A stretch of DNA of 64,000 nucleotides. It comes from Candidatus Zambryskiibacteriota bacterium. Its GTDB lineage: Bacteria > Patescibacteriota > Minisyncoccia > Phycocordibacterales > WO2-35-19. Made by a program: the position numbers and the translations under genes. The notes below the pieces were generated by a model. That model was not told where the DNA came from and did no database searches. It worked only from the letters and a program-made list of their open reading frames with translations. Numbering within the stretch: position 1 is the first letter of the stretch; every line of letters starts with the position of its first letter. The DNA lies in contig JASNZL010000005.1 of assembly GCA_048499675.1 (NCBI GenBank), forward strand, positions 7,386-71,385, in the 5' to 3' direction. This document shows positions 8,043 to 34,128 of the stretch, one piece after another.

Positions 8043-8046
8043 AAAT

Positions 8047-11061: not shown

Positions 11062-11187
11062 AGTTGTGGCAAAAGCAGGACATCGGTAATAAAACTCGCT
11101 TTCTCCTTGTAGTAAAAGGGTTCTAACTTCGTCCAAGAGGTCCAGCCGTCATATGCTAAGTCAGGTGACTGAGATGCATCAAAATTT

Positions 11188-11682: not shown

Positions 11683-11684
11683 CC

Positions 11685-13366: not shown

Positions 13367-13423
13367 AATGACAATATATCAGATTATAAAAATACAAGGA
13401 AGAGACTAGGAGATTTTAAAAAG

Positions 13424-15453: not shown

Positions 15454-15488
15454 TAATTCTGGTAATTAACCTGAAATGCTATAATTGC

Positions 15489-17183: not shown

Positions 17184-18208
17184 ACGAATCAGAAATTAAA
17201 TTAAAACTATCTTACGTAATAGGTCTTAAGCCTGTAGTTTTAAAAGAGCTTAAACAGCTCAATTTTGAAATACTTGATGCAGTTGATGATTCTGTTTACG
17301 TATCGTTTTCAAAGAATATTATTTCTGAGATCAAGCATTTAAGGAGTGTTGCCCGAGCATACGTTGTTCTTCATAGCGATAAGTATCATCCTTCATATAT
17401 TTCAAACCACAAATCTATTTTAGGAAGCTTGGTTGATATTGTTATAAATGATGATAAAAAGATATTCAATAGCTTCAAGATTAATTGTGCAGGATCCGAT
17501 TCTCCAGAAGTAAGAAGTATTTCTAAATATATTCAGGAAACATATGATTTGAAAGAAAGTGAGGAGGCAGATTTGAAGATACACATTATTAAACCTGATG
17601 ACATTTGGGAAATTGGCATTCAGATTACACCTCGACCACTATCGGTAAGAGATTATAAGGTTGTAAATATGAGCGGGGCAATGGACTCTACCATTGCTTA
17701 CGCCGTTAATTCTTTTTGTAATCTAGAAAAGGCTACTACCTATCTAAATATCTTTTCTGGAAGTGCCACCTTGCTTATAGAGGCAGGTTTATCTTTTTCT
17801 AATTTGGAAAAATTAGTTGGGTTTGATAATGAAAAGAAACACTTATCACTTTCGGTTCAAAATGTTAAAAAGGCAGGTTTAATTAAAAAGATTCAAATCA
17901 AGGAAGCGGACATTTTTGATAAGCCTGACTTCGGAAAGTTTGATGCGATAGCAACTGATTTACCGTTCGGTATGTTGATTTCAAAGAATGAGAATCTTGA
18001 AAAACTTTATAAGGCTTTTGTTGAATATTGTGAAGAAAAACTGGAACCAAGTGGTAGGTTGGTAGTATATACAAGTGAGCATGAATTGATTGAATCGATA
18101 CTTCTAAAATCACGCTTTAAGATCATTCAATCATTACAATTGAAACTCATAACAAATGCTAATGCGTATCTTAAGCCAAAGATTATTGTCTGTGAATTTA
18201 AAAACTAG
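17180..18208 (+). CDS. SAM-dependent methyltransferase (gamma-class amino-MTase order, DLPFG motif); possibly an N-terminal THUMP-like module.
   Basis: Motif I NIFSGSATLLIEAG followed by motif IV AIATDLPFGM. Confidence 0.5.
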   Translation: MNESEIKLKLSYVIGLKPVVLKELKQLNFEILDAVDDSVYVSFSKNIISEIKHLRSVARAYVVLHSDKYHPSYISNHKSILGSLVDIVINDDKKIFNSFKINCAGSDSPEVRSISKYIQETYDLKESEEADLKIHIIKPDDIWEIGIQITPRPLSVRDYKVVNMSGAMDSTIAYAVNSFCNLEKATTYLNIFSGSATLLIEAGLSFSNLEKLVGFDNEKKHLSLSVQNVKKAGLIKKIQIKEADIFDKPDFGKFDAIATDLPFGMLISKNENLEKLYKAFVEYCEEKLEPSGRLVVYTSEHELIESILLKSRFKIIQSLQLKLITNANAYLKPKIIVCEFKN

Positions 18209-19806
18209 AAATCCATTTTTTCTACAGTACCGTTATAGATAAGGATTTTGGGTCCATCTATTTTGCTATAAATATTTAAACTATCCTCTATTGAGTCTGC
18301 AATAGGATCACCTTTTAAATTTAGTGATGTATTTAATAAAACATATGTACCAGTATTGTCTCCAAAAACTTTTATCAAATCGTAAAGAAATGAATTTGAT
18401 TCTTTGGTGACAGTTTGTACTCGGGCGCTACCATCGTGATGGATAGCTCCTGTTAGTAGTTTTCTTTGAGACTCAACAACATCAAACTTATAGAGCATAA
18501 ATGGCGATTTTTTTGGTCCACTAAAATAATTGTTTACTTTTTCTTCAATGGTTACAGGAGCAACAGGTCTGTAAGATTCTCTTTGTTTTATTTTTTCACT
18601 TAACTTTTTCTTTACTTCAATACTGTCTGGACGAGCAATGAGTGATCTGTTACCAAGTGCTCTTGGGCCGATTTCTGATTTGCCATTGTGTAGAATTACA
18701 ATTCCATTTCGATTTAAGATGTCTACGGCTTTTAATACAGTATCTTTATCGTATGTTATGTTTTCAGCTCCTACTCCTAGATACGGGAGTTTTACATCTG
18801 GGCGACGAGTAAGTTCTTGCATGATCAAAATACTTAGAGCACCCAGCGACTGTCCTGTATCGTCGCAACATGGGGCTATGAATTGTTTTATGTTGGGAAA
18901 CGCATTAAGAATCTCGGTGTTGGTATCAAGATTTAAACTGACCCCGCCTGCCATTACTAAGTTGTTAGGATTTATTCTTGCTTTATCTATTATTCTTGAA
19001 ATATCCTTAACTCTATGTTCAGAAAATAATTTTTGAACCGAAGCAGCAAAGTCCAATTTCTCCTTTTCAAAGACATTGTTACTAAGGCTAATCTCAGAAA
19101 ACTCTTTTCTAAGGATTTTGGTGCTATCAAAATAATGCAGGCGGTTGAGTTCTGAAATAATCTTTTCCAGTTTCCCCAAAATATGTTCATTGGGTTTTCC
19201 GTAACCTGCAAGTGCCATCATCTTTCCTTCGCAGTGCATTTTTTGATAAATAAAATATGAACAAGCTCCATAGAATTTTCCATTAATAAAATCTGTAAAA
19301 TCAACCTTAACTCTAGTTAAGTTGTTGTTATCTGCTTTGAATACCGCGGTACATTCAGAGTCGCCACCACCGTCACATGTAACAACTAAAGCGTTTGTAA
19401 AATTAGACAAATAGTATGTTGCCGCATGAGCTAAGTGATGATTTATAACCAATATTTTTCTTTTTGAATCTAAGATATTGAAATCCATCCAAAACGGTTC
19501 TTTTGGTGTACCGTCATTATCGAAAATATTAATTTGATCATCCCACAGCAGAGGATTTTGCAATGTTGTCATTGCCCAGCCCTCTACATCTGATACGTCT
19601 CTTTTTAAATATTTCAACCCATACTTTATCAGAAATTCCATCTCATCTTTGTTACATCTCTTTCTTTTTTCTTTAAAAATCCTTTCTGCCTCTAATACCA
19701 AGACAACGCTCTCATTTATCGAAAAGGCTACAGAGGAGTCGTGCACATTGTAGGAAAAAGCACAGTAAAGTCGTTCTTTTATCATAATATTGATATAATC
19801 ATACAA
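18205..19806 (-). CDS. Carbamoyltransferase, NodU/CmcH/TobZ family.
   Basis: N-terminal YNVHDSSVAF and NHHLAHAATYY (HHxAHAA signature); length about 530 aa. Confidence 0.65.
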   Translation of the reverse strand: MYDYINIMIKERLYCAFSYNVHDSSVAFSINESVVLVLEAERIFKEKRKRCNKDEMEFLIKYGLKYLKRDVSDVEGWAMTTLQNPLLWDDQINIFDNDGTPKEPFWMDFNILDSKRKILVINHHLAHAATYYLSNFTNALVVTCDGGGDSECTAVFKADNNNLTRVKVDFTDFINGKFYGACSYFIYQKMHCEGKMMALAGYGKPNEHILGKLEKIISELNRLHYFDSTKILRKEFSEISLSNNVFEKEKLDFAASVQKLFSEHRVKDISRIIDKARINPNNLVMAGGVSLNLDTNTEILNAFPNIKQFIAPCCDDTGQSLGALSILIMQELTRRPDVKLPYLGVGAENITYDKDTVLKAVDILNRNGIVILHNGKSEIGPRALGNRSLIARPDSIEVKKKLSEKIKQRESYRPVAPVTIEEKVNNYFSGPKKSPFMLYKFDVVESQRKLLTGAIHHDGSARVQTVTKESNSFLYDLIKVFGDNTGTYVLLNTSLNLKGDPIADSIEDSLNIYSKIDGPKILIYNGTVEKMDF

Positions 19807-19820
19807 TAATTTATTAATTT

Positions 19821-20576
19821 ATGGAGGAACTAGATTTAAAACAGTTTTTAGAAAAATACAGAGGTACATCCGTAGATTTTTACCGTTTTCCCGGTAATTA
19901 TGGCGATTCTCTTATTTGGCATGGTACAAAGGCGTTATTGAAAGTATTAAATATTCGTGAAAATTATGTAGAAATTTCTTCACCAAAAAGCAACGATGTG
20001 TTACTAGTAGATGGCGGTGGTAATTTTGTGGATTATTATTCAGACATAAAAGATTTTTTGGTTAAAAAACCAAATTTATATAAGGAAATTGTTATCCTGC
20101 CTCATACTATTTTTGGAGATGAACAAATTGATGTCTTAAACAGTTTGTCTGGCAGTGTTACAGTATTTTGTAGAGAAAAAGTTTCTTTTGAATTATTAAA
20201 GCAAAAATTCACTAATGGTAATGTTTATTTGTGGCATGATTGCGCTTTTTATAATGTGTTTCAAAAATCTACAAATGGACAGGGGGTGTTGAATGCCTTT
20301 CGTGAAGATAAAGAATCTGTAATGGAAAGCCCATCTGAATCTAATCATGATATTTCTTATAATGGTTACGCAACCAAGCCTTTGGATGAATTTGTGGAGT
20401 ATTTAAGTAAATACAGAGAGATTAATACTGATAGATTACACGTGGCAATTTGCGGGACCTTATTGGGTAAAAAAGTTAATCTCTTTCCTAATTCTTATTA
20501 CAAAAATAAGGCCGTGTTTGGTTATTCTCTTTCTAGATTTCCAAACATTTCATTCTTAGAAAGTGTTAATATTTAA
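19821..20576 (+). CDS. Hypothetical protein (weak polysaccharide pyruvyl transferase-like hints, GGGN).
   Basis: ORF within the glycan locus; weak motif only. Confidence 0.3.
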   Translation: MEELDLKQFLEKYRGTSVDFYRFPGNYGDSLIWHGTKALLKVLNIRENYVEISSPKSNDVLLVDGGGNFVDYYSDIKDFLVKKPNLYKEIVILPHTIFGDEQIDVLNSLSGSVTVFCREKVSFELLKQKFTNGNVYLWHDCAFYNVFQKSTNGQGVLNAFREDKESVMESPSESNHDISYNGYATKPLDEFVEYLSKYREINTDRLHVAICGTLLGKKVNLFPNSYYKNKAVFGYSLSRFPNISFLESVNI

Positions 20577-20578
20577 TT

Positions 20579-21154
20579 ATGAAAATTACCTTTTCAAAAA
20601 TTTCAGAGATATTTTTAGATTTTCTAGAAAACCCTAATAAGGAACTTAATTATGGGGATGAACTTCATCGACTTTTTTACTTAAGCATAAGAACGAATAA
20701 AATTTTATGGGATTTAGAAGATTCTGCAAGGTTATCAGAATTGGGTGATAAGCATGTAGCTGATGCAAAAAAGAATATAGATGTAACAAATCAATCTAGA
20801 AATAATTTGATTAGAGAAATCGATACAATTTTATATAAATCCTTGGACATTGTTCCAAGCTCAGTTGACAAATTTTACAGTGAAAGTCCTGGAATGATCA
20901 TTGATAGGTTGTCGATAATTTTTATTAAACTTTCAATAGTTCGAAAATTAATCTCACTTATAGAAGAAGAGGATTTAAGGTCTGAATATGTAGCCAAAGA
21001 AAGAGTGCTTAGTAATCAAATAGACAATATAGGTCAATTTCTTGATATGTACATTGAAAGGCTTGTAAACAAGGATGTGTTTTTTGAGATACAACAACCT
21101 GTAAAAATTTATAATGACGAAAGGGTTAGAAAATACTTTAAATCCATCAAATAG
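20579..21154 (+). CDS. Hypothetical protein.
   Basis: 191-aa ORF, 2-nt gap to the previous gene. Confidence 0.4.
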   Translation: MKITFSKISEIFLDFLENPNKELNYGDELHRLFYLSIRTNKILWDLEDSARLSELGDKHVADAKKNIDVTNQSRNNLIREIDTILYKSLDIVPSSVDKFYSESPGMIIDRLSIIFIKLSIVRKLISLIEEEDLRSEYVAKERVLSNQIDNIGQFLDMYIERLVNKDVFFEIQQPVKIYNDERVRKYFKSIK

Positions 21155-21287: not shown

Positions 21288-22409
21288 ATGGTAAAATACC
21301 CTTACGGGGTCTTACTACGCAAGTTCACATCCGTGACAGTCAGCAAGAGTCAGCGCATTATCGGCGCGACCAGAGAGCATAAAGCCCCTTATGTTATGGA
21401 TGATCAAATTGATTTTGAAAAGTTAAAATATCCAGATCATGAATCAAAGGTATCTGCTCATTTTGGCTATACACACAACCTATTTCTACAAAATGATTTA
21501 AGGAACAAAAATCTGAAGATAGACAACAATCTATCTATAATAAATCAAGAAAAAGGATTTAATTATGTAACATTTCTCTCAAAATTTATTAAAGCAAATA
21601 GAGGGATAAACCATATATCTGGTACTTATTTTTTATACAAGTATACAGGTGAGAGAAAATACTACTTTGAAGCTCAAGATAGGATACGGATGTTTATTAC
21701 CGCTATCAGGATTTATAAAAATACTAGATGTGATTATAAGATTGATTTTTCAATTGAAAATTCTAAATCAAAAAAGTTTTATAAACCTTTTGATTTCTTT
21801 GATTTAACCTCTGACATGTTTGCTACAGATGGAAAATCACAGATCACCTCTAGAAAAGAGTTCAACAAAATCAAGAAAATATATGAAAGATTAAGGGAAT
21901 CGAAATTTGAAAAAAACATTTACTATTCAAAAATCTATAATGCAGTTAAATTTTTTAATCACTCTTATGATGAACATTGGACATTACTTAAAACCACTCT
22001 TGCAATTACAGCACCAGAAAGTCTATTCTCAGATTCAGATAAACAGGAGATAACCTATAAGATTGCAATTAGGTCAGCGTATTTCTTATATCCTAATAAT
22101 CCTGAGCAACGAAAAGAGGTTTTTGATTTAATCAAATATGCGTATGACATAAGGAGCCATTTCGTTCACGGATCTGATGCAGAAAAGAAAGTTGCCAAGA
22201 TCGAAAAGAAATTACATGAAAGAAAGGGCGGTGACTATTACAGTTTTCATCATCATTTTGTAAAAGATTTGAATACGGTGATTACGGGCTGTCTGTCAAA
22301 AGCTCTTCTAGATGACGATTACTTTATGTTTTTTAACTCAACTAAAATTTCTTCTGATGATGAAAGTGAGTTTTATAATAAAATTGTTCTATCAAACAAT
22401 GCTCATTAA
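21288..22409 (+). CDS. Abi_2-family (AbiD/AbiF-like) HEPN-type abortive-infection protein candidate.
   Basis: R-[NS]-x3-H-like motif IRSHFVHGSD in the C-terminal third. The first ~100 nt are GC-rich and the rest AT-rich. Converges on the recombinase gene. Confidence 0.35.
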   Translation: MVKYPYGVLLRKFTSVTVSKSQRIIGATREHKAPYVMDDQIDFEKLKYPDHESKVSAHFGYTHNLFLQNDLRNKNLKIDNNLSIINQEKGFNYVTFLSKFIKANRGINHISGTYFLYKYTGERKYYFEAQDRIRMFITAIRIYKNTRCDYKIDFSIENSKSKKFYKPFDFFDLTSDMFATDGKSQITSRKEFNKIKKIYERLRESKFEKNIYYSKIYNAVKFFNHSYDEHWTLLKTTLAITAPESLFSDSDKQEITYKIAIRSAYFLYPNNPEQRKEVFDLIKYAYDIRSHFVHGSDAEKKVAKIEKKLHERKGGDYYSFHHHFVKDLNTVITGCLSKALLDDDYFMFFNSTKISSDDESEFYNKIVLSNNAH

Positions 22410-23693
22410 TTTAATGTAATAGCCTTATTTTTGAGAATAATCTTGCTTTTTATTGATCCAAGAAATAGCCTCTTCTCTTCAATTGATCCTTGAGTCAGGA
22501 TATACACGACGTATTGTTTTTGATCAAAATCTACTTTGCTTAATTCTGGCTTAACTCCATAGAATTGCTGCTGGAATTTCTTGGCTCGCTCTCGCTCTTC
22601 GTTAAACCTCTTAAGGATAAAATTGTCGTCCAACTCCAGACCACTAATCTGTTCAATTAGTTGTTTGATAATTTCTTCTTCTCGTACATACCCACATTTG
22701 CAATCCCGATTTCTTGATCTTGAGCACCCATAGTATATGTATTTTGCTACTCCACCCTTTGACTAGTTTTTTAAACTTCTCATCAGCAGTAATACCAGAA
22801 CCACAAAGTCCACAAGACATCATTTTTGTAAAAGCGAATTCTTTGTTCTCCGATCGAATAATTGATCTGGTTGTTTGTTCCTGAACTTGATCAAACAATT
22901 CTTTGGTAATTAAAGGTGTGTGTTTACCTGTATACCAATTATTGCTTTTAACAGGATATTCAAATACGCCATAATAAAAAGGGTTCTGTAAAAGTTGAAA
23001 AATATTTCTAAGACTTAACCCCTTATTACCAGTTACACTTTTAAAATTGAGATCAAATTTAAGCCAATTGTATACTTTTCTTCCACTCCATTTTTCGTAA
23101 GCCACTTTCTCAAACATTTTCTTAATAATAGGTCCTCGTTCTGGATCGATAAGCGTCTCACATTTTCTATCCATTCGTTTTTCTTTGAAATATCCAGTTG
23201 GAGCAGGGGCGGGCCATAGTCCAAGTTCACATTTAGTCTTAAGTCCACGCTTCACATTTATACTCTTGTTGTCATTTTCGAGCTTTGCTTGAAAGCCTAG
23301 TATCATAAGAAGGAACTTCTCGTTGGGGTTATTAGTAAAGCTCTGACTGTATGTGCGTATCTCGACTAGCTTTTGTTGATCGAGTAGGTCTACCACTGCT
23401 CCTAAGTCACCGGCATTCCTAGCCAATCTATCTGGATGCCAAACTAATATTCCGTTAAATTTACCTTCTCGTATATCTAGTAATAGTTTGTTATATACAG
23501 GTCGCTGACCACAGTCTTTGGCAGAGTGAGACTCTCTATACATATCTACAATATTGAGATTGTCTCTTTGAGCGATTGTTAGCATCTCCTTGATCTGGCT
23601 GTCGATGCTCATCGCCTGGCGCTCATCCGACTCGGTACTCTTTCTTGCATAGAGGCAGTACCTCAGTTCCTCTCTTGATATGTTTGGTCCCAT
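22406..23693 (-). pseudogene. Large serine recombinase (phage-integrase type) with an apparent frameshift near 22755-22765.
   Basis: N-terminal catalytic motif LYARKSTESDE (Ser nucleophile) and a recombinase domain. The zinc ribbon CGLCGSGITADEKFKKLVKG continues in another frame as GVAKYIYYGCSRSRNRDCKCGYVREEE plus a coiled-coil tail (ORF 22406-22633). Confidence 0.65.
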
Positions 23694-24174
23694 ATATGTT
23701 GTGTGATTATTTTTGTTAATTAATTCCTCGACACAACACAAGGAATGACGCGACCCTTTTGGGGAGTCCAGACCCCGCTGTTGGTAACTTTTGCTTCGCA
23801 AGTCTCTATTACTAAGCTAGAACACAAGGGCCAGCAGGCAGTCTTGGGTCATCGGTTACTACGGTTATCGATGTACTCAAGATTCAAGTCCAATCCGGAT
23901 TTGGCACTGGCGGGAAACCTGTACGCAGGCAGAGGCTCCGATTTCCTGATCTCCACGGAGAGGCGGAGAAACAGAAGCCCTTCCCGCCAGAACCAAGTCC
24001 AGACCAAACGACTTCATATCACCCTAAATTACAGTTTGAGTGAGCACCAAAACATAACTCGTCTTTTGATTTGGTCCTTGTGTGAAGCAATAAATTGTGT
24101 TATGGTGGTGCCGATGAGAAATCCATGGCGGCTTTCTCAAAACAGTTCATTCACAATCAAAAAAGGAGTCAATC

Positions 24175-24897
24175 ATGTCCAGTAAAGGTCTCTTGATGCT
24201 CGAATTGGAGTCCCGACTCCTTTGCGAGTACGATGATGGGAATTTCTGCTCGCTGATATTCGGTCTCAGCCGTAACACAGTGCTTGAACTTCCTTCAGGA
24301 TATACCCATTTCGGCCTACTGGTCGAAGGTCGCGCGGCGGTCTCGCACAATGGAAGAATTCGTCATCTGTATGATGGTGACTTCTTCTCTGTTGTCGGAC
24401 CTGCCAAGGTCATCAGTAAGGGAATGGGAATTGTCACTTCAGCCAAAGGTTACCGAGGATTCAATGTCTTCGGTGGCCCATTGGAGGAAAAAGGCAAGCT
24501 CCGCTACATCAACGGTTGCACCGACACTTTGTTGGTACCTCCGGTGCGGAAAGGTGATCCTTGTCTGAATCACCTGCATTTCCCGCCACACTCTGTGCAG
24601 ACACCCCACACGCACCCTTCGGTACGCGTTAACATCGTCTACCGCGGATCGGGTGTATGCCTGGTGCCAGAAGACGAGAAAAAGCGGGTACCGCTCGTGA
24701 AAGGTTACGTCTTCATCATGAAGACGAATACTTTACACAGCTTCGACACTGAAGATGAAAGCATGGACGTCATCACTTTCCATCCCGATAGTGATGTCGG
24801 AATGACTGATGACGATCATCCCATGGTCAATCGCACGATTGTTGATGGGGTAAGTGCGAAATTCATCGACCACATCAGAACAGGAGGTGGAGAATGA
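24175..24897 (+). CDS. Cupin-domain protein.
   Basis: HLHFPPHSVQTPHTHP-type cupin motif; GC-rich gene with SD AAAGGAG. Confidence 0.4.
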   Translation: MSSKGLLMLELESRLLCEYDDGNFCSLIFGLSRNTVLELPSGYTHFGLLVEGRAAVSHNGRIRHLYDGDFFSVVGPAKVISKGMGIVTSAKGYRGFNVFGGPLEEKGKLRYINGCTDTLLVPPVRKGDPCLNHLHFPPHSVQTPHTHPSVRVNIVYRGSGVCLVPEDEKKRVPLVKGYVFIMKTNTLHSFDTEDESMDVITFHPDSDVGMTDDDHPMVNRTIVDGVSAKFIDHIRTGGGE

Positions 24898-25592
24898 AAA
24901 CACTGCACGTGAGCGCTGGTGGCCGCGGTGAACGTATCGCGGCCTACATCTCATCCATCCGACCGTTTCTCCCGAAGCACCTCTTGCCAATTCCTACGGA
25001 AGGCAGGACAATCTTGGGTGAGATAATCTTCAAAGCACATACGCATTTCGAGGAAATCACGGTCTGGTCAAGCAAGGAGACCTATCCTCGGATTGCGTTG
25101 GCGCTCGAATATCTGATGCCTGTCGGGGTGCGAGTGGATGCGAAAATGACTGGTCCGCTAGGGCCGATGGTACGGAGGTTGCTCGCAACGAGACAGCGCA
25201 CGTTCGGTTGTGCCGGCGACTTCTATTGCGATTTTTCTTGGAAGGAGTTCGAGAAATTCCATGAAGCTCATGGACTCCCGATCTCAATCCTCGTCGCAAA
25301 GAGTGTTCCGGCTCCCGGTGGCGCACGTTTTCATCTGAACGGTGGCGACATCACAGGGTGGGAACGAGTCGAAAAGACTACCAAGGACGATAGGATCAAC
25401 ATTGGCTGTTACATCATTGATCCCGTTCCCGAGGTCGTCGCCTGTCTTGAGGCAATGAAGAAACACAAAGAAGATCCATTCTTTGACATCTTCATACCCA
25501 AGAAGCTCGTTGCCGGATATGACCCAGGCTTATCCGGCTTCAACGTCAATGTTGCGGAAGTGTATGAACATCTCCTGCACGTCTTGGCGTAG
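24894..25592 (+). CDS. Nucleotidyltransferase-family protein (sugar-phosphate/MobA-like NTP transferase).
   Basis: N-terminal LHVSAGGRGERI, G-G-x-G-x-R-like; 4-nt overlap with the cupin gene. Confidence 0.4.
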   Translation: MKTLHVSAGGRGERIAAYISSIRPFLPKHLLPIPTEGRTILGEIIFKAHTHFEEITVWSSKETYPRIALALEYLMPVGVRVDAKMTGPLGPMVRRLLATRQRTFGCAGDFYCDFSWKEFEKFHEAHGLPISILVAKSVPAPGGARFHLNGGDITGWERVEKTTKDDRINIGCYIIDPVPEVVACLEAMKKHKEDPFFDIFIPKKLVAGYDPGLSGFNVNVAEVYEHLLHVLA

Positions 25593-25646
25593 GGAGGGCG
25601 TAGAAGCATGCGTCCTCCCTTTTCCTAACTCAAAACCAAAGGAGCA

Positions 25647-26102
25647 ATGATGAAAGTAATAACTGAGTGCACGATCAAACTCGCCAAGAGGCGAAAGATC
25701 CAAGACGTCATCAGGGCGAGTAAATACGATGAGGTTAATTTCCTCATCACGGAAGGAGCCAGTAAAAAAAGACTGTCTCTTAGTGACGAGGAAGTTGGCG
25801 AGCGGACGATCGTTGTCGTCAGCACTGATGACGAAAGTATCAGTTCAGGCGATGTGCTTTCCGAAGCACGGCGCATGGGATTGGTTCGTCCAAGCTATGG
25901 AGATGCCTTCCTTATCGGGGAGCAACATCCTGACGAGCAGATTGCAGGGCCGATCGTCTTTCTCCACGATCCGCAGTACATGTGGAGCGGACACTCCTTC
26001 AATCTTGTTCTCGACGTAAGTCGGAAGGGGCGGATCATCAGTTTCGTATCTTCCGGCGGTTGGTGGCATAGTGGTTTTCGCTTCGCTTTCAGAAAGAAGT
26101 GA
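25647..26102 (+). CDS. Hypothetical protein.
   Basis: SD AAAGGAG; followed by a strong terminator hairpin at 26139-26176. Confidence 0.45.
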   Translation: MMKVITECTIKLAKRRKIQDVIRASKYDEVNFLITEGASKKRLSLSDEEVGERTIVVVSTDDESISSGDVLSEARRMGLVRPSYGDAFLIGEQHPDEQIAGPIVFLHDPQYMWSGHSFNLVLDVSRKGRIISFVSSGGWWHSGFRFAFRKK

Positions 26103-26138
26103 CGCCAATACTGCGCCATCGCGTCAACCCTAGCAGGT

Positions 26139-26176
26139 AACGGTCAATCGTTACCTGCTTTCTTTTTTCATAAAAA
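26139..26176 (+). terminator. Rho-independent terminator.
   Basis: AGCAGGTAACG-gtcaat-CGTTACCTGCT followed by TTTCTTTTTTC. Confidence 0.6.
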
Positions 26177-26187
26177 TAATTTACAAT

Positions 26188-26760
26188 GTGATCACTATGG
26201 GAAAAACAAAAGTCATTTTTCTGCGCCACGCTGACACACAGAAAGACCCAAATCTCAATGCGGCTATGTGGGGACTTTCCGAAGAAGGAAAAAAACAGGC
26301 CGAAGACATTGCGAGTTTGCCAATCATGAATGAGGTAGACGTAATTTACGTCTCTGAAGAGAGGAAAACAGCCTTGACTGTTGAATCATTGGCAAAAAAA
26401 TTGGGAAAAGAGGCAGTTCCTCTCGCGTTTTTTGATGAGGTAAAAAGAGGGGATAAATTTCTAACGAAAGAAGAGTTTGAAGCGGAGAAAGCAAAACAAC
26501 TCAAAGACCTTGATTATCAGGCTTTTGGTGGTGAATCAGGCAAAGAAGCTCTCGCGCGGTTCAAACAGGGTGTCGAACAAATATTAAAGGAAAATCCGGG
26601 TAAAACAGTTCTCATTGTTACTCACGGCACTGTTCTGAATATTTACTTTGCCGATTTGTTGAATGCGTACGATAAGCTCCCAGAACGTTGGCAAAAGACC
26701 GCCTTCTGCGCGTATGGGGTGGTTGAAGATGGGAGTGTGGCGAAAGATATAATCTCTTAA
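26188..26760 (+). CDS. Histidine phosphatase (phosphoglycerate mutase-like) family protein.
   Basis: VIFLRHADT (RH motif) and LIVTHGTV. Confidence 0.6.
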   Translation: MITMGKTKVIFLRHADTQKDPNLNAAMWGLSEEGKKQAEDIASLPIMNEVDVIYVSEERKTALTVESLAKKLGKEAVPLAFFDEVKRGDKFLTKEEFEAEKAKQLKDLDYQAFGGESGKEALARFKQGVEQILKENPGKTVLIVTHGTVLNIYFADLLNAYDKLPERWQKTAFCAYGVVEDGSVAKDIIS

Positions 26761-26764
26761 CTTT

Positions 26765-28222
26765 TTAAAGTATTGTAATTTCTCCCCTCGTTGCGTCAAC
26801 CCTTACTTTTTGGCCATCTTTCAGAATTCTTGTTGCTTCTTTAACACCGATACAGCATGGTTTGTTAATTTCCCTGCATACAACTGAAGCATGGCTCAAG
26901 ATGCCACCTTCTTCAGTAATGACAGCAGCCGAACGATACATCGCTTCTATTAAATCAAAGTCTGTTCCAATAGCGATCATAATGTCACCTTGGAGAACCT
27001 TGTTACTATCTTCTTTTGTCAAAACAATTTTGCATTCTCCTTCACAGACTCCCCGTGACGCGCATTGTCCGCGAAGAATGTTCGGTGTTGCATCTTCCGA
27101 TTGTATTGGTAATACGTCTGCTGTATGTAATTTAAAATCTTCAAACCGTGTAAATGTTACCCCGTTTGTTTTTCTTGAAATAATTTCTTTTGTGTCCAAC
27201 TTCTTTGCATGACGTAATAAGTCGGTTATTTCTGCCAAAAGGTAGAAGTTGAGGTTATCTCTGGTTTCTAAATTTCTGCTCGCAATTCCATCAAGTATCT
27301 CAAACCGATACTTAACACTTTGGCCCAAAAGAGCTTTGTTAGTATCTCTAAAAAGCCCACCTTGTACCAACAGAGGTACAAGCACATTTAATTTTTTGTT
27401 GTTTATCTTGCGTAGTAAATTACTTGATTCCTTGGAAAGAAGCTTTGGAAGAATAGTATGTTTTTGAGGCTTAACTTCACCCGATAGAAACTTCTGAAAG
27501 TCAGACCAGAAAACTTCAAATTTAGCCGGATCTTCACCGTATGCTGAATAGAGATACTTGTACCTTTCATAATGACGCTGAACGTCCTTTTTGGCTTTTT
27601 GCTCGTTAAAAAACGATAGTTTTTTCAAGACTCTCCATTTTCTAGCGATTTTATAGAGTTTCGTTTTTTCATTTTGTGAGGCAGACGGCTTTTCCGTTTG
27701 AATCAAACGCACAAATAAATCCTCTACCTTTTCTTTGTCGGCCTCTATCTCGCTGATAACTCTTTTAACAGCGATATTTAAACCGTGCTCTACCTGAACG
27801 AAATTCAAAACATACAATTCACCCAAAACGATAGATTGGAAATGAATCAGTAATGATGCTAAGTCCTTGTTCGGTAATTCGGAAAACTTTGTTTGTTGAA
27901 GCTTTTTTATAAAAGCATGAAAATGTTCTCGTTTTCGTCGATAGAGTATTTCAGTGCTCTCTATTAAAATCGGATCAAGCGAATAATATTGGTCGCTAAG
28001 AATTTCTCCTAATCTGTCCCATTCATGAACCGGAGCGTAAGAATTCACAATTCCATCTTTCCAAATGGTGATTGTGTGTCTAAATCTGATTGAGTTTATT
28101 TTTGGTTCATGCCGGTTATAAAGATCATGAATAAATTCAACACCCAGTAAATGGGCAATACTCCGCATATTTATTCGTCTCCATTCGGTCGACTTATTTT
28201 TTACATCTATATTTTCAATCAT
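26765..28222 (-). CDS. PEP-utilising-enzyme mobile (phosphohistidine) domain protein; C-terminal half of a rifampin-phosphotransferase/PEP-synthase-like kinase.
   Basis: C-terminal GGILSHASVVCREINKPCCIGV (swivelling His domain). Lies 4 nt downstream of the ATP-grasp gene. Confidence 0.6.
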   Translation of the reverse strand: MIENIDVKNKSTEWRRINMRSIAHLLGVEFIHDLYNRHEPKINSIRFRHTITIWKDGIVNSYAPVHEWDRLGEILSDQYYSLDPILIESTEILYRRKREHFHAFIKKLQQTKFSELPNKDLASLLIHFQSIVLGELYVLNFVQVEHGLNIAVKRVISEIEADKEKVEDLFVRLIQTEKPSASQNEKTKLYKIARKWRVLKKLSFFNEQKAKKDVQRHYERYKYLYSAYGEDPAKFEVFWSDFQKFLSGEVKPQKHTILPKLLSKESSNLLRKINNKKLNVLVPLLVQGGLFRDTNKALLGQSVKYRFEILDGIASRNLETRDNLNFYLLAEITDLLRHAKKLDTKEIISRKTNGVTFTRFEDFKLHTADVLPIQSEDATPNILRGQCASRGVCEGECKIVLTKEDSNKVLQGDIMIAIGTDFDLIEAMYRSAAVITEEGGILSHASVVCREINKPCCIGVKEATRILKDGQKVRVDATRGEITIL

Positions 28223-28226
28223 AATG

Positions 28227-29174
28227 TTATGGTTTTAAAGTAGTTATAGGTCTTGCTTGCAGAAGCTTAAATCTGCCGTTTTCTGTTGCCCATTCGATAT
28301 CAACCGGATATCCAAAAACTTTTTCAATTTGCAAAACCAATTCTGCAAGTTCTATAATTTCGTTATCAGACAGAACTTGTTTTTCACCTGTTTCTTTTAG
28401 TATTTCGCGCCATTCATTTCCACCTCTTTCTGCACGATAAAGACCTTTTGTTTGAATCTGAATATTCTTATCAATAATCCGCACTGACTGTTTTTCTGCC
28501 ACATAGGTATCCGGTGTAACTTGTCCGGATACGATGGGCTCACCCAATCCGAATCCCGCCTCTATGATAAGTTGATTTCTATCTTGCGTTATTGGATGAA
28601 CAGAAAAAGCGATACCCGACCTATCGCTTTCAACCATTTTTTGGATCACTATAGCGATGGATAGTGCCGAGTCATTTAGGTTTTTCTGAAAACGGTAAAA
28701 GATAGCACGGGGAGCAAATAATGAAGCCCAACATCTTCTGATATTTTCCAACAGATTTTCTTCTGTGGTGTTTAGGTAACTTTCAAGCTGCCCAGCCCAC
28801 GCTGCATTTGTTGAATCTTCAGCGGTAGCCGAAGAACGAACAGCGACATATTTTGAATCAAGGTCCTTGAAAGACCTTTTGATTTCATCAGCAATATCTT
28901 CCGGTATTTCAGCTCCAAATATTAAAGCTTGGATTTTTTCAGAAACATTCTCAATCGTGTGTATTTCTTTGTGATTAACAGAAGCTAGCGCAGCGTCAAT
29001 TTCCACATTCAAATCAGTTTCTTTTAGAAAATTCTCAAAGGCAGTTGTAAGTACGACAAAACCAGATGGAACTGGTATTCCTGCTTTTGTCATTTCTCCG
29101 AGCGAAGCGCCTTTACCTCCGGCAAGAGCAACATCGTTCCTACTGATTTTTTCAATTGATTGTATAAACTCCAT
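28227..29174 (-). CDS. PEP/pyruvate-binding ATP-grasp domain protein (PPDK_N-like); N-terminal half of a rifampin-phosphotransferase/PEP-synthase-like kinase.
   Basis: N-terminal ALAGGKGASLGEM. Confidence 0.6.
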   Translation of the reverse strand: MEFIQSIEKISRNDVALAGGKGASLGEMTKAGIPVPSGFVVLTTAFENFLKETDLNVEIDAALASVNHKEIHTIENVSEKIQALIFGAEIPEDIADEIKRSFKDLDSKYVAVRSSATAEDSTNAAWAGQLESYLNTTEENLLENIRRCWASLFAPRAIFYRFQKNLNDSALSIAIVIQKMVESDRSGIAFSVHPITQDRNQLIIEAGFGLGEPIVSGQVTPDTYVAEKQSVRIIDKNIQIQTKGLYRAERGGNEWREILKETGEKQVLSDNEIIELAELVLQIEKVFGYPVDIEWATENGRFKLLQARPITTLKP

Positions 29175-29271
29175 GAGACATTTATGATTTTATCAAATTT
29201 ACGCTTAGTCTCATAATTCACCAAACAGATCAAGCCTCCATCTCCAAAAAAGATTGTGCTAAAATACACCC

Positions 29272-29757
29272 ATGATCATCTTCCTCAACGGTTCCATAAA
29301 TGCGGGCAAGAGCACGGTGGCGAGACTCTTGGCAAAAGAACTGCCGAATGTAGCACTTGTGGAGATTGACGCTTTGCGCGAGATGATTGCTTGGATGCCG
29401 ATTGACGAGACGGTGCCTATTAATCTCGAGAATGCCGTATCGCTCATCCGCAATTTCGTCAAAAGAGGTTTGAATGTCATCGTCCCATACCCGCTCTCGG
29501 AGAAAAACTATCACTATGTGATGGAAGGATTGAAAGACCTGGGTGCGGTAATACACGTCTTCACGCTTGCGCCGAGTATGGAGGCGGCACAAGCCAATCG
29601 AGGCGAAAGAGAAATCACCATGCAGGAGCGAGAACGGATCAAATATCACTACGACATCGGCATACACAGCCCCTCGTTCGGGGAAGTGATAGACAATACC
29701 GACCAAAGTCCGGAGGAAACAGCGAGGTATATTCTTGAGCGCCTCAAAATTCTTTGA
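29272..29757 (+). CDS. Chloramphenicol phosphotransferase-like (CPT family) P-loop kinase.
   Basis: MIIFLNGSINAGKST...IDALREMIAWMP resembles the CPT N-terminus; about 160 aa. Confidence 0.5.
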   Translation: MIIFLNGSINAGKSTVARLLAKELPNVALVEIDALREMIAWMPIDETVPINLENAVSLIRNFVKRGLNVIVPYPLSEKNYHYVMEGLKDLGAVIHVFTLAPSMEAAQANRGEREITMQERERIKYHYDIGIHSPSFGEVIDNTDQSPEETARYILERLKIL

Positions 29758-30040
29758 CAATCTTTTTAGTCACGGCATCCACAAAAAGTCGAAACGTAGG
29801 CCTGTTTTCTTTTTCATACAACATCCTTATCCCAAGCACATGCCCTTTTGGGCAGGCAAATTCTTTCCCGCTCGTCTCGACTGCTGGCTCATTGATACGA
29901 TCAATGTACATGCGGCGCAAATGTCCCGGTCCGTCTTTTTGATAGAAGCAAATGAAGGCGTTGCATTTTCTACAGCGGATATCCAAAAAACGTGAATAGC
30001 CGCCCCGAGATTTCTTATATTTATCGTTCTTTATTTTCAT
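29744..30040 (-). CDS. Small Zn-ribbon hypothetical protein.
   Basis: CRKCNAF...CPKGH four-Cys/His pattern. Confidence 0.3.
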   Translation of the reverse strand: MKIKNDKYKKSRGGYSRFLDIRCRKCNAFICFYQKDGPGHLRRMYIDRINEPAVETSGKEFACPKGHVLGIRMLYEKENRPTFRLFVDAVTKKIVKEF

Positions 30041-30602
30041 AGATTCGAATAAAGTCTTCTTGGTCTTTTAGTCTTCCTTCTATAACCGCATCATAAATTT
30101 CTTGACTGACCATCGGCAACTTGTTTCGATTGCGATATTCTTTACAAGAGAGAATAAGAGACCGTTGTTCTGCTGAAAGATTCGCCATCCGCGTATCGTT
30201 TGCGGAACGTTTTTTGAATTCTTTTTCACTCACAAACCATACATCCACCTTCCAACGTTCCCCGTTGATTTTCTCTTTTAATCCGATATAGTATCCTTCC
30301 GGAAATTTCGCTCCTTTACGCGGATCATCCCAATCCCCGCCGATAAAGTAGCTACGGAATGTTCCCTTGAAATATAACGCCCTAAAGATTTCAAACACCT
30401 CCTCAACCGCATATGGCTTTTCACGAACCACAGAAATATCGATATCGCCATGCAACATGAGGTTGTATTTATACGCACCGGTGAAGTGTACCGTGCCGTA
30501 GCGTGAGAGATCGGCAATGAAGCCTGTCTTCGACAAGAGCTCATCGGCTTTCTGTTTCCATATATTGGTTGCGATTAGTATGTCGTCCGGTTTTCTATCC
30601 AT
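30021..30602 (-). CDS. Nucleotidyltransferase-fold protein (Pol-beta superfamily; ANT/Lnu-like).
   Basis: FTGAYKYNLMLHGDIDISV (G..10..DxD). Confidence 0.35.
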   Translation of the reverse strand: MDRKPDDILIATNIWKQKADELLSKTGFIADLSRYGTVHFTGAYKYNLMLHGDIDISVVREKPYAVEEVFEIFRALYFKGTFRSYFIGGDWDDPRKGAKFPEGYYIGLKEKINGERWKVDVWFVSEKEFKKRSANDTRMANLSAEQRSLILSCKEYRNRNKLPMVSQEIYDAVIEGRLKDQEDFIRIYENKER

Positions 30603-30625
30603 ATTGCTTCATTTATTCAGTTTTT

Positions 30626-31450
30626 TTATTCATTCTTACTTACACTTTCCCACCACTTCTCGAGCTTCGGCTTGTATCCTTCTTTCCACGATATCGGGAT
30701 CACGAAATCGTCCGACCACTTTTGGTATTCGCCGTGCAGGGTTTTTTCAAAAAGCTGTCTGTAGCAACTCATCCTATCGTCGATATTTTGGCTCGCGGAA
30801 TAACGGTGAAAAAGCGATCGGAAATCCGGGTCATTTTTCTCAAGGTACTTTATCGCCGTCTTTTCCCCACGCCATGGAATATCTCGGAAAGAGAAATAAG
30901 CGGTAATGAGTTCCATGGTGCTATAGAGCAGGCGCATTTCCAAAGCTTCCTGATATAACGTGTCATTCGAGTCATAGTAGCGAGAATTCGCGATGAAGTT
31001 GTAATTGATTTTGATCCAAAAGTCTTTTTTCTCCGCATCGGGAACTTTCTGCATCGGTGGTTTGCTCTTGATCTCCTGCTTCAAGTTTGCGAGTAGATTT
31101 TCATAGTCATATTCCACTTTGCCTTTCGAGAGCCATTCCAAAAACATTCCCTCAAAAGCATTGGAGAGAATTTCCTTTTTATCCCCCAATTTTTGGACAA
31201 AATCAGTATCAAAAAAGAATATATCGGCGAAATGATTTTCCGCCATTGTGTAAACCGATTTTATATCCTCGCTGTTCCTGTCAAGAACAACGACAAGGTC
31301 GATGTCACTCGAAGGAGAAAGGGATGTCGCGGTGGTACCGGTGGTGAAGATCCCCCTCACTCTTGGCGAGGCTTTCAATGTATCTATGAGTTTTTCTAAT
31401 TTCATCGTTCTGCTTATTTTATCAAATTTCCATTCAGTCTCATAATCCAT
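30626..31450 (-). CDS. Aminoglycoside-adenylyltransferase-like nucleotidyltransferase (ANT/AadA-like).
   Basis: GIFTTGTTATSLSPSSDIDLVVVL. The start is placed at the ATG overlapping the upstream stop (ATGGATTATGA). Confidence 0.5.
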   Translation of the reverse strand: MDYETEWKFDKISRTMKLEKLIDTLKASPRVRGIFTTGTTATSLSPSSDIDLVVVLDRNSEDIKSVYTMAENHFADIFFFDTDFVQKLGDKKEILSNAFEGMFLEWLSKGKVEYDYENLLANLKQEIKSKPPMQKVPDAEKKDFWIKINYNFIANSRYYDSNDTLYQEALEMRLLYSTMELITAYFSFRDIPWRGEKTAIKYLEKNDPDFRSLFHRYSASQNIDDRMSCYRQLFEKTLHGEYQKWSDDFVIPISWKEGYKPKLEKWWESVSKNE

Positions 31451-31760
31451 CAAATGGATCGAAATCAGCCATCTCCTCCGTGAGCTTCTCCATCTCCACG
31501 AGGACTTTGCGATAGATGGTTTTGATGCGTTCTTTGTCCGTTCCCTCAATCACAGCGTCGACATCTTCATCGGGCACAAACGAGGCGAGCGATATGTATG
31601 AACCCACCAGCAAGCGAACGCGCTCCTTGATGGCGCGCTTCAGCCGCTTCTTTGATTCGGGAAGGCGGGAAATGCGGTTAAGCAAAACCTTATCCGGCCT
31701 TTCGTGGAATCGGTAATGCTGCGCCTCTTTGATGACTTCCTCGATGTCGTCTCCCTGCAT
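31440..31760 (-). CDS. Small helical hypothetical protein, translationally coupled to the nucleotidyltransferase.
   Basis: 106-aa ORF; ATGA-type overlap. Confidence 0.35.
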   Translation of the reverse strand: MQGDDIEEVIKEAQHYRFHERPDKVLLNRISRLPESKKRLKRAIKERVRLLVGSYISLASFVPDEDVDAVIEGTDKERIKTIYRKVLVEMEKLTEEMADFDPFDGL

Positions 31761-32391
31761 GCTTCAAGGGATGACACTGATCGCTTGGGGAGGCAAGTTG
31801 GTAAGTCAAGGTGACACGTCAGCATAACCAGAAACATGTCACTTTGTGTCACATTCAGCTGCTAATATCCTGCATATTCACCAAATGAGACACCGAAAGA
31901 GGAGTTCTAAGGTGTGTCTCATTTGTCTCTGTCTCACCCTGCTCCTGGCAAAAGTGACACTCCAAAATGCCGTTTTCGTGTCACTTTTGTCACTTTTTGG
32001 GTGCCAGAAAATTGGCATTTGTTGGCATTTGAGACATAGCCTAATACCCCTTACCTATGTCCCATTCGTCTCAGAAAGAGACCCCGACCTAAGAGCGTCA
32101 GTGGCATGGGCGGAAAACGTCTCAAAAACGCTTACGGGGTCTCACTGTCCGGGCACCAGACCTAAGAGGTCAGCAAACGAGGGAAGCTCTGTTTGATGGG
32201 GAGAGCAAAGCAACAGTTTGCTTTGTGGACAGGGCTCGAAAACCTTGAGTATATTTTTGAAAAGCTTTGTTTAGAAAAAATACAAAAGGTGTACAGCGTC
32301 TGTAAGACGAGAGACCCCTGGCTCCCCAGCCAACTTCTCATGTGTTTCAGTTTATACTTGTCGCCTTATATTCCAAAATCTGTTATAATGT

Positions 32392-33618: not shown

Positions 33619-34128
33619 TTGATTATGGAAATAAAATCTAAAATGGTAAATAGGTTGGGTCAGGATTTGGACCTTATATATTATGAAGGACTTAATCCAA
33701 ATGAGAATTTAGAAGGTAAAATATTGCAAGCGGTTCATGGTTTTTGTTTTTATGGAGATAAGATTGTCATTGTTTTCGCTGAAGAAAAAGGATACTGGAC
33801 TTTTCCGGGCGGAGGAATAGAAATTGGAGAAACTTATGAGGAAGCAACAGTTCGTGAAGTTAGAGAAGAATCTAATATGAAAGTATCACATCAAGAACTA
33901 ATTGGATTTCAAGATATTTTTGAACCTGATAGGGTAGTCAGGCAAACTCGCTCTTTTTGTTTGGTTGAACCGTATGGAGAATTTGCAGGTGATCCTGATG
34001 GTGATATTACTGAAATAAAACTAATTGATCCGAAAGATATCAAAAAATATATTGATTGGAAAGAAATAGGAGATAGAATTATGAAAAGAGCGCTCCAAAT
34101 GAAAGAGGAGTATTACAGTAAGATTTAA
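33619..34128 (+). CDS. Nudix hydrolase (paralog B', about 70% identical to 11685-12188).
   Basis: FPGGGIEIGETYEEATVREVREESNM and EPYGEFAGDPDGDITEIKLIDPKD. Confidence 0.75.
   Translation: MIMEIKSKMVNRLGQDLDLIYYEGLNPNENLEGKILQAVHGFCFYGDKIVIVFAEEKGYWTFPGGGIEIGETYEEATVREVREESNMKVSHQELIGFQDIFEPDRVVRQTRSFCLVEPYGEFAGDPDGDITEIKLIDPKDIKKYIDWKEIGDRIMKRALQMKEEYYSKI

Follow-up and report, generated by a model that had tools for sequence, protein, structure and literature searches.

The locus described here raises the question of whether enzymes that resemble antibiotic-inactivating proteins confer resistance or belong to a metabolic pathway. It lies in a 64,000-nucleotide stretch of a Candidatus Zambryskiibacteriota contig (JASNZL010000005.1), which is referred to as the window and provides all of the numbering used below. 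A sequence-only reading had grouped, within 5 kb (26765-31760), a split kinase related to rifampin phosphotransferase (Rph) and phosphoenolpyruvate (PEP) synthase, a kinase resembling chloramphenicol phosphotransferase (CPT), a Zn-ribbon protein and two polymerase beta (Pol-beta)-fold nucleotidyltransferases, with a histidine phosphatase, a nucleoside triphosphate (NTP) transferase and a cupin upstream. Resistance or self-immunity, or a nucleotide-based modification pathway, was proposed. The window proteins and DNA were scanned against the curated families of Pfam, NCBIfam, PADLOC, PHROG and Rfam. The open reading frames (ORFs) were found at the coordinates given by that reading and its domain assignments hold, the domain calls being far beyond chance; small-molecule enzymes do lie in a compositionally odd region that adjoins a serine recombinase in a Patescibacteria-type genome. 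Our analysis suggests that positions 24175-29174, the core of a gene module, probably encode a conserved, horizontally mobile pathway in which a small molecule would be phosphorylated and then nucleotidylated. The alternative of a nucleotide-based modification pathway comes near to this explanation, while the resistance half of the proposal is unlikely. The features of the core are as follows.

24175-24897, plus strand: cupin, 240 residues (Cupin_2, E 1.1e-6).
24894-25592, plus strand: p232, GT-A-like nucleotidyltransferase, 232 residues (family profile; motif SAGGxGxR...PKHLLP).
25647-26102, plus strand: p151, orphan protein of 151 residues and module accessory in this clade (synteny; no family match).
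26132-26159, plus strand: strong terminator-like hairpin, 12-bp stem and T tract, 3' of the cupin-p232-p151 unit.
26188-26760, plus strand: histidine phosphatase (branch 1), 190 residues (His_Phos_1, E 2.5e-21; RH...THG catalytic motifs).
26765-28222, minus strand: putative dikinase subunit B, 485 residues (PEP-utilizers swivel domain at residues 411-480, E 1.7e-18; AlphaFold2 model).
28227-29174, minus strand: putative dikinase subunit A, ATP-grasp nucleotide-binding protein, 315 residues (PPDK_N, E 4.5e-96, profile positions 2-312 of 328).

The split kinase was confirmed, with PPDK_N in the 315-residue ORF and PEP-utilizers in the 485-residue ORF; the junction between them is 4 nucleotides long (TAA-catt-ATG). 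The 485-residue protein is composed of a helical substrate-binding domain (approximately residues 1-370) and a phosphohistidine swivel domain that bears the intact motif GGILSHASVV. The motif TEEGGILSHASVV contains His444, which aligns with the catalytic histidine of PEP synthase and Rph. The AlphaFold2 model of this protein has a mean predicted local distance difference test score (pLDDT) of 94, and its best match among solved structures is the Listeria rifampin phosphotransferase Rph-Lm (5fbt; Foldseek E 3e-15, ~580 columns, 15% identity), with the alignment spanning the substrate-binding and histidine domains. The three-part architecture of Rph (ATP-grasp domain, helical substrate domain and swivel domain with the catalytic histidine) is present, distributed over two polypeptides.

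A frameshift as the origin of the split, which had been raised along with the 4-nucleotide gap, was rejected, as the junction reads TAA-catt-ATG, the gene order varies between genomes, and at least 120 homologues (40-83% identity) are all ~485 residues long, carry the swivel domain only and are conserved at the N-terminus from W14. The two-gene architecture is conserved. Where they are annotated at all, these homologues are labelled Patescibacteria proteins. Among the 22 distinct related loci on which all synteny counts are based, the ATP-grasp gene lies upstream of the 485-residue gene in L002 (directly, with a 4-nucleotide overlap) and L008, downstream in L010, L011, L018 (directly) and L017, and ~3 kb away in L012; none is nearby in L005 and L006. 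In L019, L020, L021 and L023 the ATP-grasp domain is fused after the swivel domain, that is, in the opposite order. As the position of the ATP-grasp gene varies in this manner, the comparison of loci indicates that the 315- and 485-residue proteins are separate subunits that would have to assemble in trans. In Candidatus Microsaccharimonas sossegonensis (L014), the 485-residue gene is present as two ORFs (1389-2525 and 2571-2843), which may represent a genuine disruption or a sequencing error.

Neither of the two obvious curated families accounts for the pair. The ATP-grasp ORF has PEP synthase as its top NCBIfam match (324.7 bits) followed by Rph (292.4 bits), with neither reaching its equivalog cutoff. 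The 485-residue ORF scores 89.6 bits against PEP synthase, the best match of its swivel domain; these values compare with a cutoff of 598 bits. The Rph equivalogs were missed by a wide margin, with 292.4 and 73.6 bits for the ATP-grasp and 485-residue ORFs against a cutoff of 999 bits (NF041857), and 196.9 and 51.9 bits against a cutoff of 1700 bits (NF000283). A housekeeping PEP synthase or pyruvate phosphate dikinase that is merely split, with unrelated neighbours, would explain why PEP synthase heads the matches of both the ATP-grasp ORF and the swivel domain. However, we regard this identity as scarcely credible: no PEP/pyruvate triosephosphate isomerase (TIM)-barrel domain was found in either ORF or in the conserved neighbours, the bit scores fall short of the 598 and 739 required for the equivalogs, no PEP synthase matches residues 1-320 of the 485-residue protein, which superpose instead on the Rph substrate domain, and the fusion partners described below are a nucleotidyltransferase and a phosphatase. 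Given the lack of a TIM barrel and scores far below cutoff for both PEP synthase and Rph, the pair is, as judged from sequence and predicted structure, an Rph-architecture dikinase with a family-specific acceptor domain. Polar side chains occupy many of the invariant positions in the substrate domain (R20, E29, H32, N43, N140, Q143, E145, H217, R292, D293 and K296), which hints at a hydrophilic substrate.

The genomic context of the dikinase was compared in neighbourhoods drawn from Saccharibacteria, Paceibacterota and other Patescibacteria, from Aenigmatarchaeota, and from metagenome-assembled genomes (MAGs) labelled 'Rickettsiales', 'Proteobacteria', 'Mollicutes' and 'Firmicutes', with a gene-to-gene distance of at most 5 kb for p232. 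The functional set at 24175-29174, comprised of the cupin, p232, p151, the histidine phosphatase, the 485-residue protein and the 315-residue ATP-grasp protein, recurs across Patescibacteria and DPANN genomes and Rickettsiales-, Mollicutes- and Firmicutes-labelled MAGs. A p232 orthologue was present within 5 kb of the dikinase in 18 of the 22 loci. The 485-residue gene is further accompanied by the ATP-grasp gene, often by the histidine phosphatase and, in seven loci, by the cupin. In two loci (L020 and L021), a single ORF contains the substrate domain, PEP-utilizers, PPDK_N and NTP_transferase, with a cupin gene just upstream. In an Aenigmatarchaeota locus (L018), one ORF joins the substrate domain and PEP-utilizers to His_Phos_1, and this fusion has an NTP_transferase+LbH gene on one side and a PPDK_N gene on the other. 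A PEP synthase-like, His-swivel kinase is therefore genetically coupled to an NTP-transferase, the arrangement known from Cj1418 and Cj1416. The synteny and the fusions show that the earlier 5-kb grouping was wrong, and that the dikinase goes with the cupin, the nucleotidyltransferase, the 151-residue protein and the histidine phosphatase. Literature searches for this combination of genes returned nothing, and the pathway appears to be undescribed.

Further genes recur beside the module. HIT proteins were found in seven loci and AAA_17 P-loop kinases in five, with a further AAA_17 protein in L097. Genes for NMT1/THI5-type ABC importers (substrate-binding protein and permease) adjoin the dikinase in L012, L019 and L023, and a full NMT1-type importer lies beside the dikinase gene in L096. 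Other recurrent neighbours are enzymes resembling arginine deiminase and dimethylarginine dimethylaminohydrolase (ADI/DDAH-like) and, in four loci, sulfotransferase-like proteins with a weak, sub-cutoff match (E 6e-4). The ADI/DDAH-like enzymes and sulfotransferase-like proteins occur in Saccharibacteria-type loci (L097, 3048-8953; L015, L022 and L026). L097 additionally carries a fused ATP-sulfurylase/adenosine 5'-phosphosulfate (APS) kinase, the genes for synthesis of 3'-phosphoadenosine 5'-phosphosulfate (PAPS), which hints at PAPS-like chemistry in module variants of this type.

The upstream genes pointed out by the sequence-only reading were also upheld, the phosphatase and cupin by Pfam and the NTP-transferase by its family profile. 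The window p232 alone has no Pfam match. A profile of 15 orthologues matched human GMPPB in the PDB (7d72; E 2.5e-12, residues 8-219), followed by other GDP-mannose pyrophosphorylases (E ~1e-8) and GlmU (E ~1e-3), and PF00483 was matched by the fused or neighbouring versions in L018 (E 1.2e-9) and L020 (E 2.3e-4). G10, R14 and K28 are invariant in the family. The predicted GT-A-like fold, the GGxGxR...K motif and the family similarity are those of a sugar-1-phosphate nucleotidyltransferase of the PF00483 type. The cupin gene overlaps the p232 gene by 4 nucleotides. Its metal-site histidines (H145, H147 and H188) and a C-terminal extension (HPDSxxGxTDxxHPM) are conserved, and the seven loci with an adjoining orthologue include the fused Rickettsiales- and Proteobacteria-labelled versions; profile searches of the PDB returned generic cupins only (E > 0.004). 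The histidine phosphatase is best matched in NCBIfam, below cutoff, by alpha-ribazole phosphatase (CobC; E 9.6e-13, 47.9 of the 162.9 bits required) and PspA, and in the PDB by phosphoserine phosphatase (4ij5, E 4e-7).

The remaining member, p151, had no match in Pfam, NCBIfam, PADLOC or the PDB sequences. Its AlphaFold2 model (pLDDT 91.6) had no significant fold match in the PDB, the best being C-type-lectin-like (E 0.07, template modelling score ~0.35). Genes for p151 are present in five module loci and those for FBP_C treble-clef zinc-finger proteins in 11 others, and the two are mutually exclusive. A degenerate FBP_C zinc finger was rejected as the identity of p151 (hhalign probability 0.1%).

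From these observations, we infer the following order of reactions. The 315- and 485-residue proteins would form a two-subunit dikinase of the rifampin phosphotransferase/PEP synthase type. ATP would be held by the ATP-grasp subunit, and His444 of the swivel domain would accept the beta-phosphate, with release of AMP and Pi, and pass it to a small, probably polar acceptor, X, bound in the family-specific helical domain, to yield X-P. The nucleotidyltransferase p232 would then join X-P to an NTP, yielding a nucleoside diphosphate derivative (NDP-X) and PPi. Roles in preparing the precursor or in removing a surplus phosphate may fall to the cupin, which is isomerase- or epimerase-like, to the histidine phosphatase and to p151. 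The kinase step is proposed because of the known chemistry of the dikinase family, and the nucleotidyl-transfer step because of the fusions and the similarity of p232 to sugar-1-phosphate nucleotidyltransferases. A sugar-like X is favoured because the PDB-matched relatives of p232 are sugar-1-phosphate enzymes. The product would most likely be a sugar, or a compound resembling one, in nucleotide-activated donor form, obtained through salvage in organisms that are poor in biosynthesis. The importer, HIT and DDAH-like neighbours keep non-sugar options open.

One such option is a donor of the O-methyl phosphoramidate (MeOPN) or PAPS type. The dikinase would act on an amide or other non-sugar group, the nucleotidyltransferase would produce NDP-X, a P-loop kinase (in the window possibly the CPT-like protein) would add a 3'-phosphate, and the donor would decorate a surface glycan or other target. 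In the Campylobacter jejuni pathway, the product of the kinase is the substrate of the cytidylyltransferase Cj1416, and Cj1415 belongs to the P-loop kinases. Cj1418, once annotated as PEP synthase or pyruvate phosphate dikinase, is an L-glutamine kinase, and together with Cj1415, Cj1416 and Cj1417 it converts glutamine, ATP and CTP to CDP-phosphoramidate 3'-phosphate (PMC10971088, PMC11800397). This precedent is in keeping with the P-loop kinases of five loci and L097, the HIT proteins of seven, the weak sulfotransferase-like matches of four and the PAPS-synthesis genes of L097, as well as with the P-loop kinase that lies divergently adjacent to the module in the window and has a weak APS-kinase likeness (NF004041, E 3e-4), and with the glycan-biosynthesis region upstream (13-21 kb). 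However, no Cj1417-type amidohydrolase was found and no GATase-like gene occurs among the recurrent neighbourhood families, the sulfotransferase match is below cutoff, and the CPT-like kinase of the window is unrelated to the AAA_17 kinases of the module and absent from other module loci. Furthermore, p232 is PF00483/GMPP-like. Known members of the PF00483 family are sugar-1-phosphate enzymes. We therefore consider a donor of this kind unlikely.

Salvage of a cofactor or nutrient is a further option, in which an imported, vitamin-like compound would be phosphorylated and then nucleotidylated, as in the conversion of riboflavin to FMN and FAD, or of cobinamide (Cbi) to Cbi-P and GDP-Cbi with subsequent action of the CobC phosphatase. 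Most occurrences of the module are in lineages with reduced genomes (those with the labels Patescibacteria, DPANN, Rickettsiales and Mollicutes), importer genes of the NMT1/THI5 type stand beside the dikinase in the four loci named above, and the best NCBIfam match of the histidine phosphatase is CobC. That match is well below its cutoff, however, no further cofactor-pathway gene (CobS, RibF) was seen in the neighbourhoods, and the nearest relatives of p232 are sugar-1-phosphate enzymes, which together make this version a distinctly doubtful one.

The pathway core is followed in the window by further genes, most of which the resistance proposal had included.

29272-29757, plus strand: CPT/TmrB-like P-loop kinase, 161 residues, divergent from the dikinase operon (Pfam CPT, E 4.9e-8, 33.4 bits).
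29744-30040, minus strand: putative Zn-ribbon protein, 98 residues, last gene of the NT259-NT193 operon (CxxC...CxxxH motif only).
30021-30602, minus strand: NT193, Pol-beta-fold nucleotidyltransferase, 193 residues, from an uncharacterised family of ~190 residues (family profile).
30626-31405, minus strand: NT259, Pol-beta-superfamily nucleotidyltransferase, 259 residues, with a conserved helical C-terminal domain (homologue comparison).
31440-31760, minus strand: p106, ORF of 106 residues, GC content at third codon positions (GC3) 0.645 (identical-strain contigs only).

The 161-residue kinase exceeds the Pfam CPT cutoff of 22 bits, in agreement with the sequence-only reading, but reaches only 15.8 bits against the 250-bit cutoff of the NCBIfam CPT equivalog (NF033114). 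Its best PDB match is 2vli (E 0.0017), deposited as 'antibiotic resistance protein', which we take to be a TmrD-type tunicamycin-resistance protein. Orthology between this kinase and the module-associated AAA_17 kinases was rejected, as there is no profile similarity. For the 98-residue protein, a CxxC...CxxxH motif is present, and the Pfam, NCBIfam and PHROG scans gave no family match.

Of the two proteins read as Pol-beta-fold nucleotidyltransferases, the fold was supported by borderline Pfam matches of NT259 and by the family profile of NT193, and the AadA/aminoglycoside nucleotidyltransferase (ANT)-like label was not. NT193 alone has no Pfam match. Its family (544 cluster representatives at E ≤ 1e-3) has invariant G42, D55 and D120, with D53 conserved in at least 90%; DNA_pol_B_palm was matched by 8 of 47 members, and the family profile matches just the catalytic core of terminal deoxynucleotidyltransferase and poly(A) polymerase (E 0.004-0.007). 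The ORF originally listed for NT259 (30626-31549, '307-aa') is over-extended; the gene was taken to start at 31405 because 120 homologues are 259-260 residues long. NT259 scores 22.1 bits with Polbeta (cutoff 26.9) and 21.1 bits with NTP_transf_2 (cutoff 21), and neither its sequence nor its family profile has a PDB match. G23, S33, D34 and D36 are invariant in its family, which is found across the candidate phyla radiation (CPR) and stands alone in other genomes. Neither protein has an NCBIfam match, the ANT and Lnu families included, and an ANT-like identity for NT259 was rejected on the lack of any PDB or NCBIfam match. Nor are they minimal nucleotidyltransferase (MNT) antitoxins, which have ~100-140 residues and an adjacent HEPN gene, since the proteins have 193 and 259 residues and the scanned adjacent ORFs contain no HEPN domain. 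In one NT259 homologue (P0155), of 425 residues, the protein is fused to a NUDIX domain, and the vicinity of the module contains NUDIX genes both in the window (33619-34128) and in L002, L005, L022 and L097.

Contigs identical to the window are the only ones in which the CPT-like kinase, Zn-ribbon protein, NT193, NT259 and p106 adjoin the module; these genes are absent from all other module loci and from other contexts of NT259. On this comparison, the genes at 29272-31760 are strain-specific accessory genes that would have accreted beside the module.

In the explanation by antibiotic or xenobiotic inactivation, the Rph-like kinase, the CPT-like kinase and the Pol-beta nucleotidyltransferases would each inactivate a drug and would have been brought in by a mobile element for resistance or self-immunity. 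In its favour, no solved structure matches the 485-residue model better than Rph-Lm, the 161-residue kinase passes the Pfam CPT cutoff and has 2vli as its best PDB match, and a serine recombinase and atypical GC content are found nearby. In addition, rph-, aad- and phenicol-type genes of CPR genomes, with likenesses just as remote, have been listed as 'AR-like' in a published survey (PMC8651080). However, every curated resistance-family threshold was missed (Rph, 292 and 74 bits against 999; CPT, 15.8 against 250; no ANT or Lnu match), and the PDB contains no match to the profile of NT259. Synteny and fusion connect the dikinase with a sugar-1-phosphate-type nucleotidyltransferase, a phosphatase and a cupin, which argues against a one-step drug kinase, as such an enzyme needs none of them. 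Many invariant residues of its substrate domain are polar, plasmid and phage records contain no full-length relative of the 485-residue protein (just swivel-domain matches with coverage of at most 41%), and other genomes do not keep the putative resistance genes together. Drug inactivation is, in our assessment, very improbable.

Three further features were mapped in this part of the window.

22406-23801, minus strand: large serine recombinase (Resolvase, E 5.3e-24; Recombinase, E 6.2e-12; PHROG integrase, E 4.6e-55).
29187-29231, minus strand: copy A of a 45-nucleotide promoter-like element (ATGAGA-16-TGnTAAAAT), 13 nucleotides upstream of the ATP-grasp ATG.
31416-31460, minus strand: copy B of the same element, 11 nucleotides upstream of the NT259 ATG, overlapping the p106 stop codon.

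The recombinase is in pieces, with the N-terminal part at 22653-23801 and the C-terminal part at 22406-22633, and three-frame translation showed its Zn-ribbon region resuming in another frame near 22640-22700 (...FKKLVKG | GVAKYIYYGCSRSRNRDCKCGYVREEE). The gene is probably a frameshifted pseudogene, and the island may consequently be immobilised. The GC content is 0.41-0.53 across ~23.5-33.5 kb, compared with ~0.30-0.36 in the flanks, and the raised region begins beside the recombinase. The GC3 is 0.55-0.60 in the cupin, p232 and p151 genes, 0.61 in the CPT-like kinase and 0.65 in p106, falling from 0.55-0.60 to 0.41 at the terminator-like hairpin; the dikinase genes, at 0.28-0.33, are near the flanking host genes. 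Parts of 24175-31760 thus seem to differ in origin or age. Elsewhere, the module lies near recombinases in L097 and L020. In L002, a 70%-identical relative, the whole module (6129-14238) is placed between pheS and pheT, with a 60-residue ORF and an rve_3 transposase fragment. The occurrence of the module in unrelated genomic places makes horizontal mobility plausible. PHROGs matched solely the recombinase and generic kinases, and a phage origin was rejected; a defence system was likewise rejected, PADLOC having returned just two negligible matches. No tRNA gene and no Rfam match was found within the window.

The two copies of the 45-nucleotide element are 82% identical, share a 29-nucleotide core (TATGAGACTnnnnGnAAATTTGATAAAAT) and contain the extended -10-like sequence TGnTAAAAT; two matches were found where none is expected by chance. 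Copy B overlaps the 3' end of the 106-residue ORF (..DPFDGL*), and a remnant (..DLFGEL*) precedes copy A. The element is absent from the non-identical module loci. Its appearance is that of a promoter or gene-end cassette that has been duplicated, which suggests co-regulation or a recombination seam; shared elements of this kind could possibly link the dikinase operon to the NT259 operon.

A 23-nucleotide imperfect direct repeat (21294-21316 and 32124-32146; 87% identical, 10.8 kb apart) brackets the island. It was not treated as an attachment site, because short two-copy families often arise by chance. Upstream of the recombinase (13268-21154) is a set of glycan-modification genes, including GT1, a GT2+GT9 (heptosyltransferase-like) fusion, a methyltransferase, a carbamoyltransferase, a polysaccharide pyruvyl transferase and DUF4254. 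This set is a possible user of a nucleotide-activated product, and is not conserved with the module elsewhere.

The phosphorylation-nucleotidylation pathway has in its favour that the recurrent HIT, AAA_17 and importer neighbours would handle nucleotides or an imported compound. Several points weigh against it. No characterised orthologue of the module enzymes was found. The likeness of p232 to sugar-1-phosphate enzymes is remote, with a profile E of 2.5e-12 and a window protein that has no Pfam match, and the kinase-then-nucleotidyltransferase order is an assumption. A sugar pathway does not readily account for the neighbours of the ADI/DDAH-like, HIT and FBP_C types or for the NMT1-type importers, and only some of the loci have the cupin and histidine phosphatase. 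The shared promoter-like element means that the NT259 operon could be co-regulated with, and functionally linked to, the dikinase. Finally, the sharp GC3 difference inside the module (0.55-0.60 compared with 0.28-0.33) indicates that the window copy is a mosaic. A more specific version of the pathway, in which the pair is a new two-subunit water-dikinase (a new EC 2.7.9.x) that works with a dedicated nucleotidyltransferase to make a novel nucleotide-activated metabolite, ultra-small lineages that depend on hosts (Patescibacteria, DPANN, and Rickettsiales- and Mollicutes-like MAGs) have acquired the module by horizontal spread, and p151 represents a new fold, is put forward tentatively, as somewhat less than an even prospect. 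If true, the module would replace a missing conventional activation route, or yield a surface or signalling molecule for an epibiotic lifestyle.

The acceptors known from characterised members of the small dikinase family are pyruvate, glucans, selenide, rifampin, glutamine, flavonoids and prodiginine precursors, and the module would add a new acceptor class to it. The conserved dikinase-nucleotidyltransferase pairing is a testable entry into the metabolism of organisms that cannot be grown alone, and may point to a nucleotide-activated compound used in epibiont surface building or host scavenging. Metabolic reconstructions of candidate-phyla bacteria routinely label genes of this type 'PEP synthase', a reading that is probably wrong for this dikinase family. 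Similarly, remote rifampin, chloramphenicol and aminoglycoside 'resistance-like' genes of CPR genomes have been counted as 'AR-like' (PMC8651080); the genomic coupling of the dikinase family argues against such counting, which is probably wrong in this case.

Compared with known systems, the pair resembles Rph (EC 2.7.9.6; Listeria RPH-Lm, 5fbt/5hv1) in its ATP-grasp domain, helical substrate domain and C-terminal swivel domain with an aligned catalytic histidine, and the chemistry is presumably ATP + X + H2O -> AMP + Pi + X-P. It differs from Rph in being carried on two polypeptides with variable gene order, in its ~15% identity and a score far below the equivalog cutoff, in the many polar invariants of the pocket domain, and in its operon and fusion links to a nucleotidyltransferase and histidine phosphatase. 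PEP synthase and pyruvate phosphate dikinase have homologous ATP-grasp and swivel domains, but the window proteins lack the TIM barrel and have a different acceptor domain. The 161-residue protein shares with CPT and TmrB/TmrD-type P-loop proteins a passed Pfam cutoff and the best PDB match, 2vli; however, it reaches 15.8 of the 250 bits required, the similarity is mainly to the P-loop, and it is not conserved with the module.

Salvage routes to NDP-sugars (Fkp, AmgK/MurU/MupP and HddA/GmhB/HddC) combine a kinase with a pyrophosphorylase, and kinase-pyrophosphorylase fusions such as Fkp exist. The predicted isomerase, kinase, phosphatase and sugar-1-phosphate nucleotidyltransferase activities of the module are similar. 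However, these routes use GHMP or APH-type kinases and HAD phosphatases, whereas the window has a His-swivel dikinase, a histidine phosphatase and a cupin, and there is no orthology. The closest documented phosphorylate-then-nucleotidylate logic is that of the Campylobacter MeOPN pathway, which also recalls the P-loop kinase beside the module in the window; the likeness drawn here is one of logic. Unlike that pathway, the window has no Cj1417-like hydrolase, the module partners are a cupin, a histidine phosphatase and p151 or FBP_C, and p232 is sugar-1-phosphate-like. The module is best classed as a new variation on a known dikinase-plus-nucleotidyltransferase logic.

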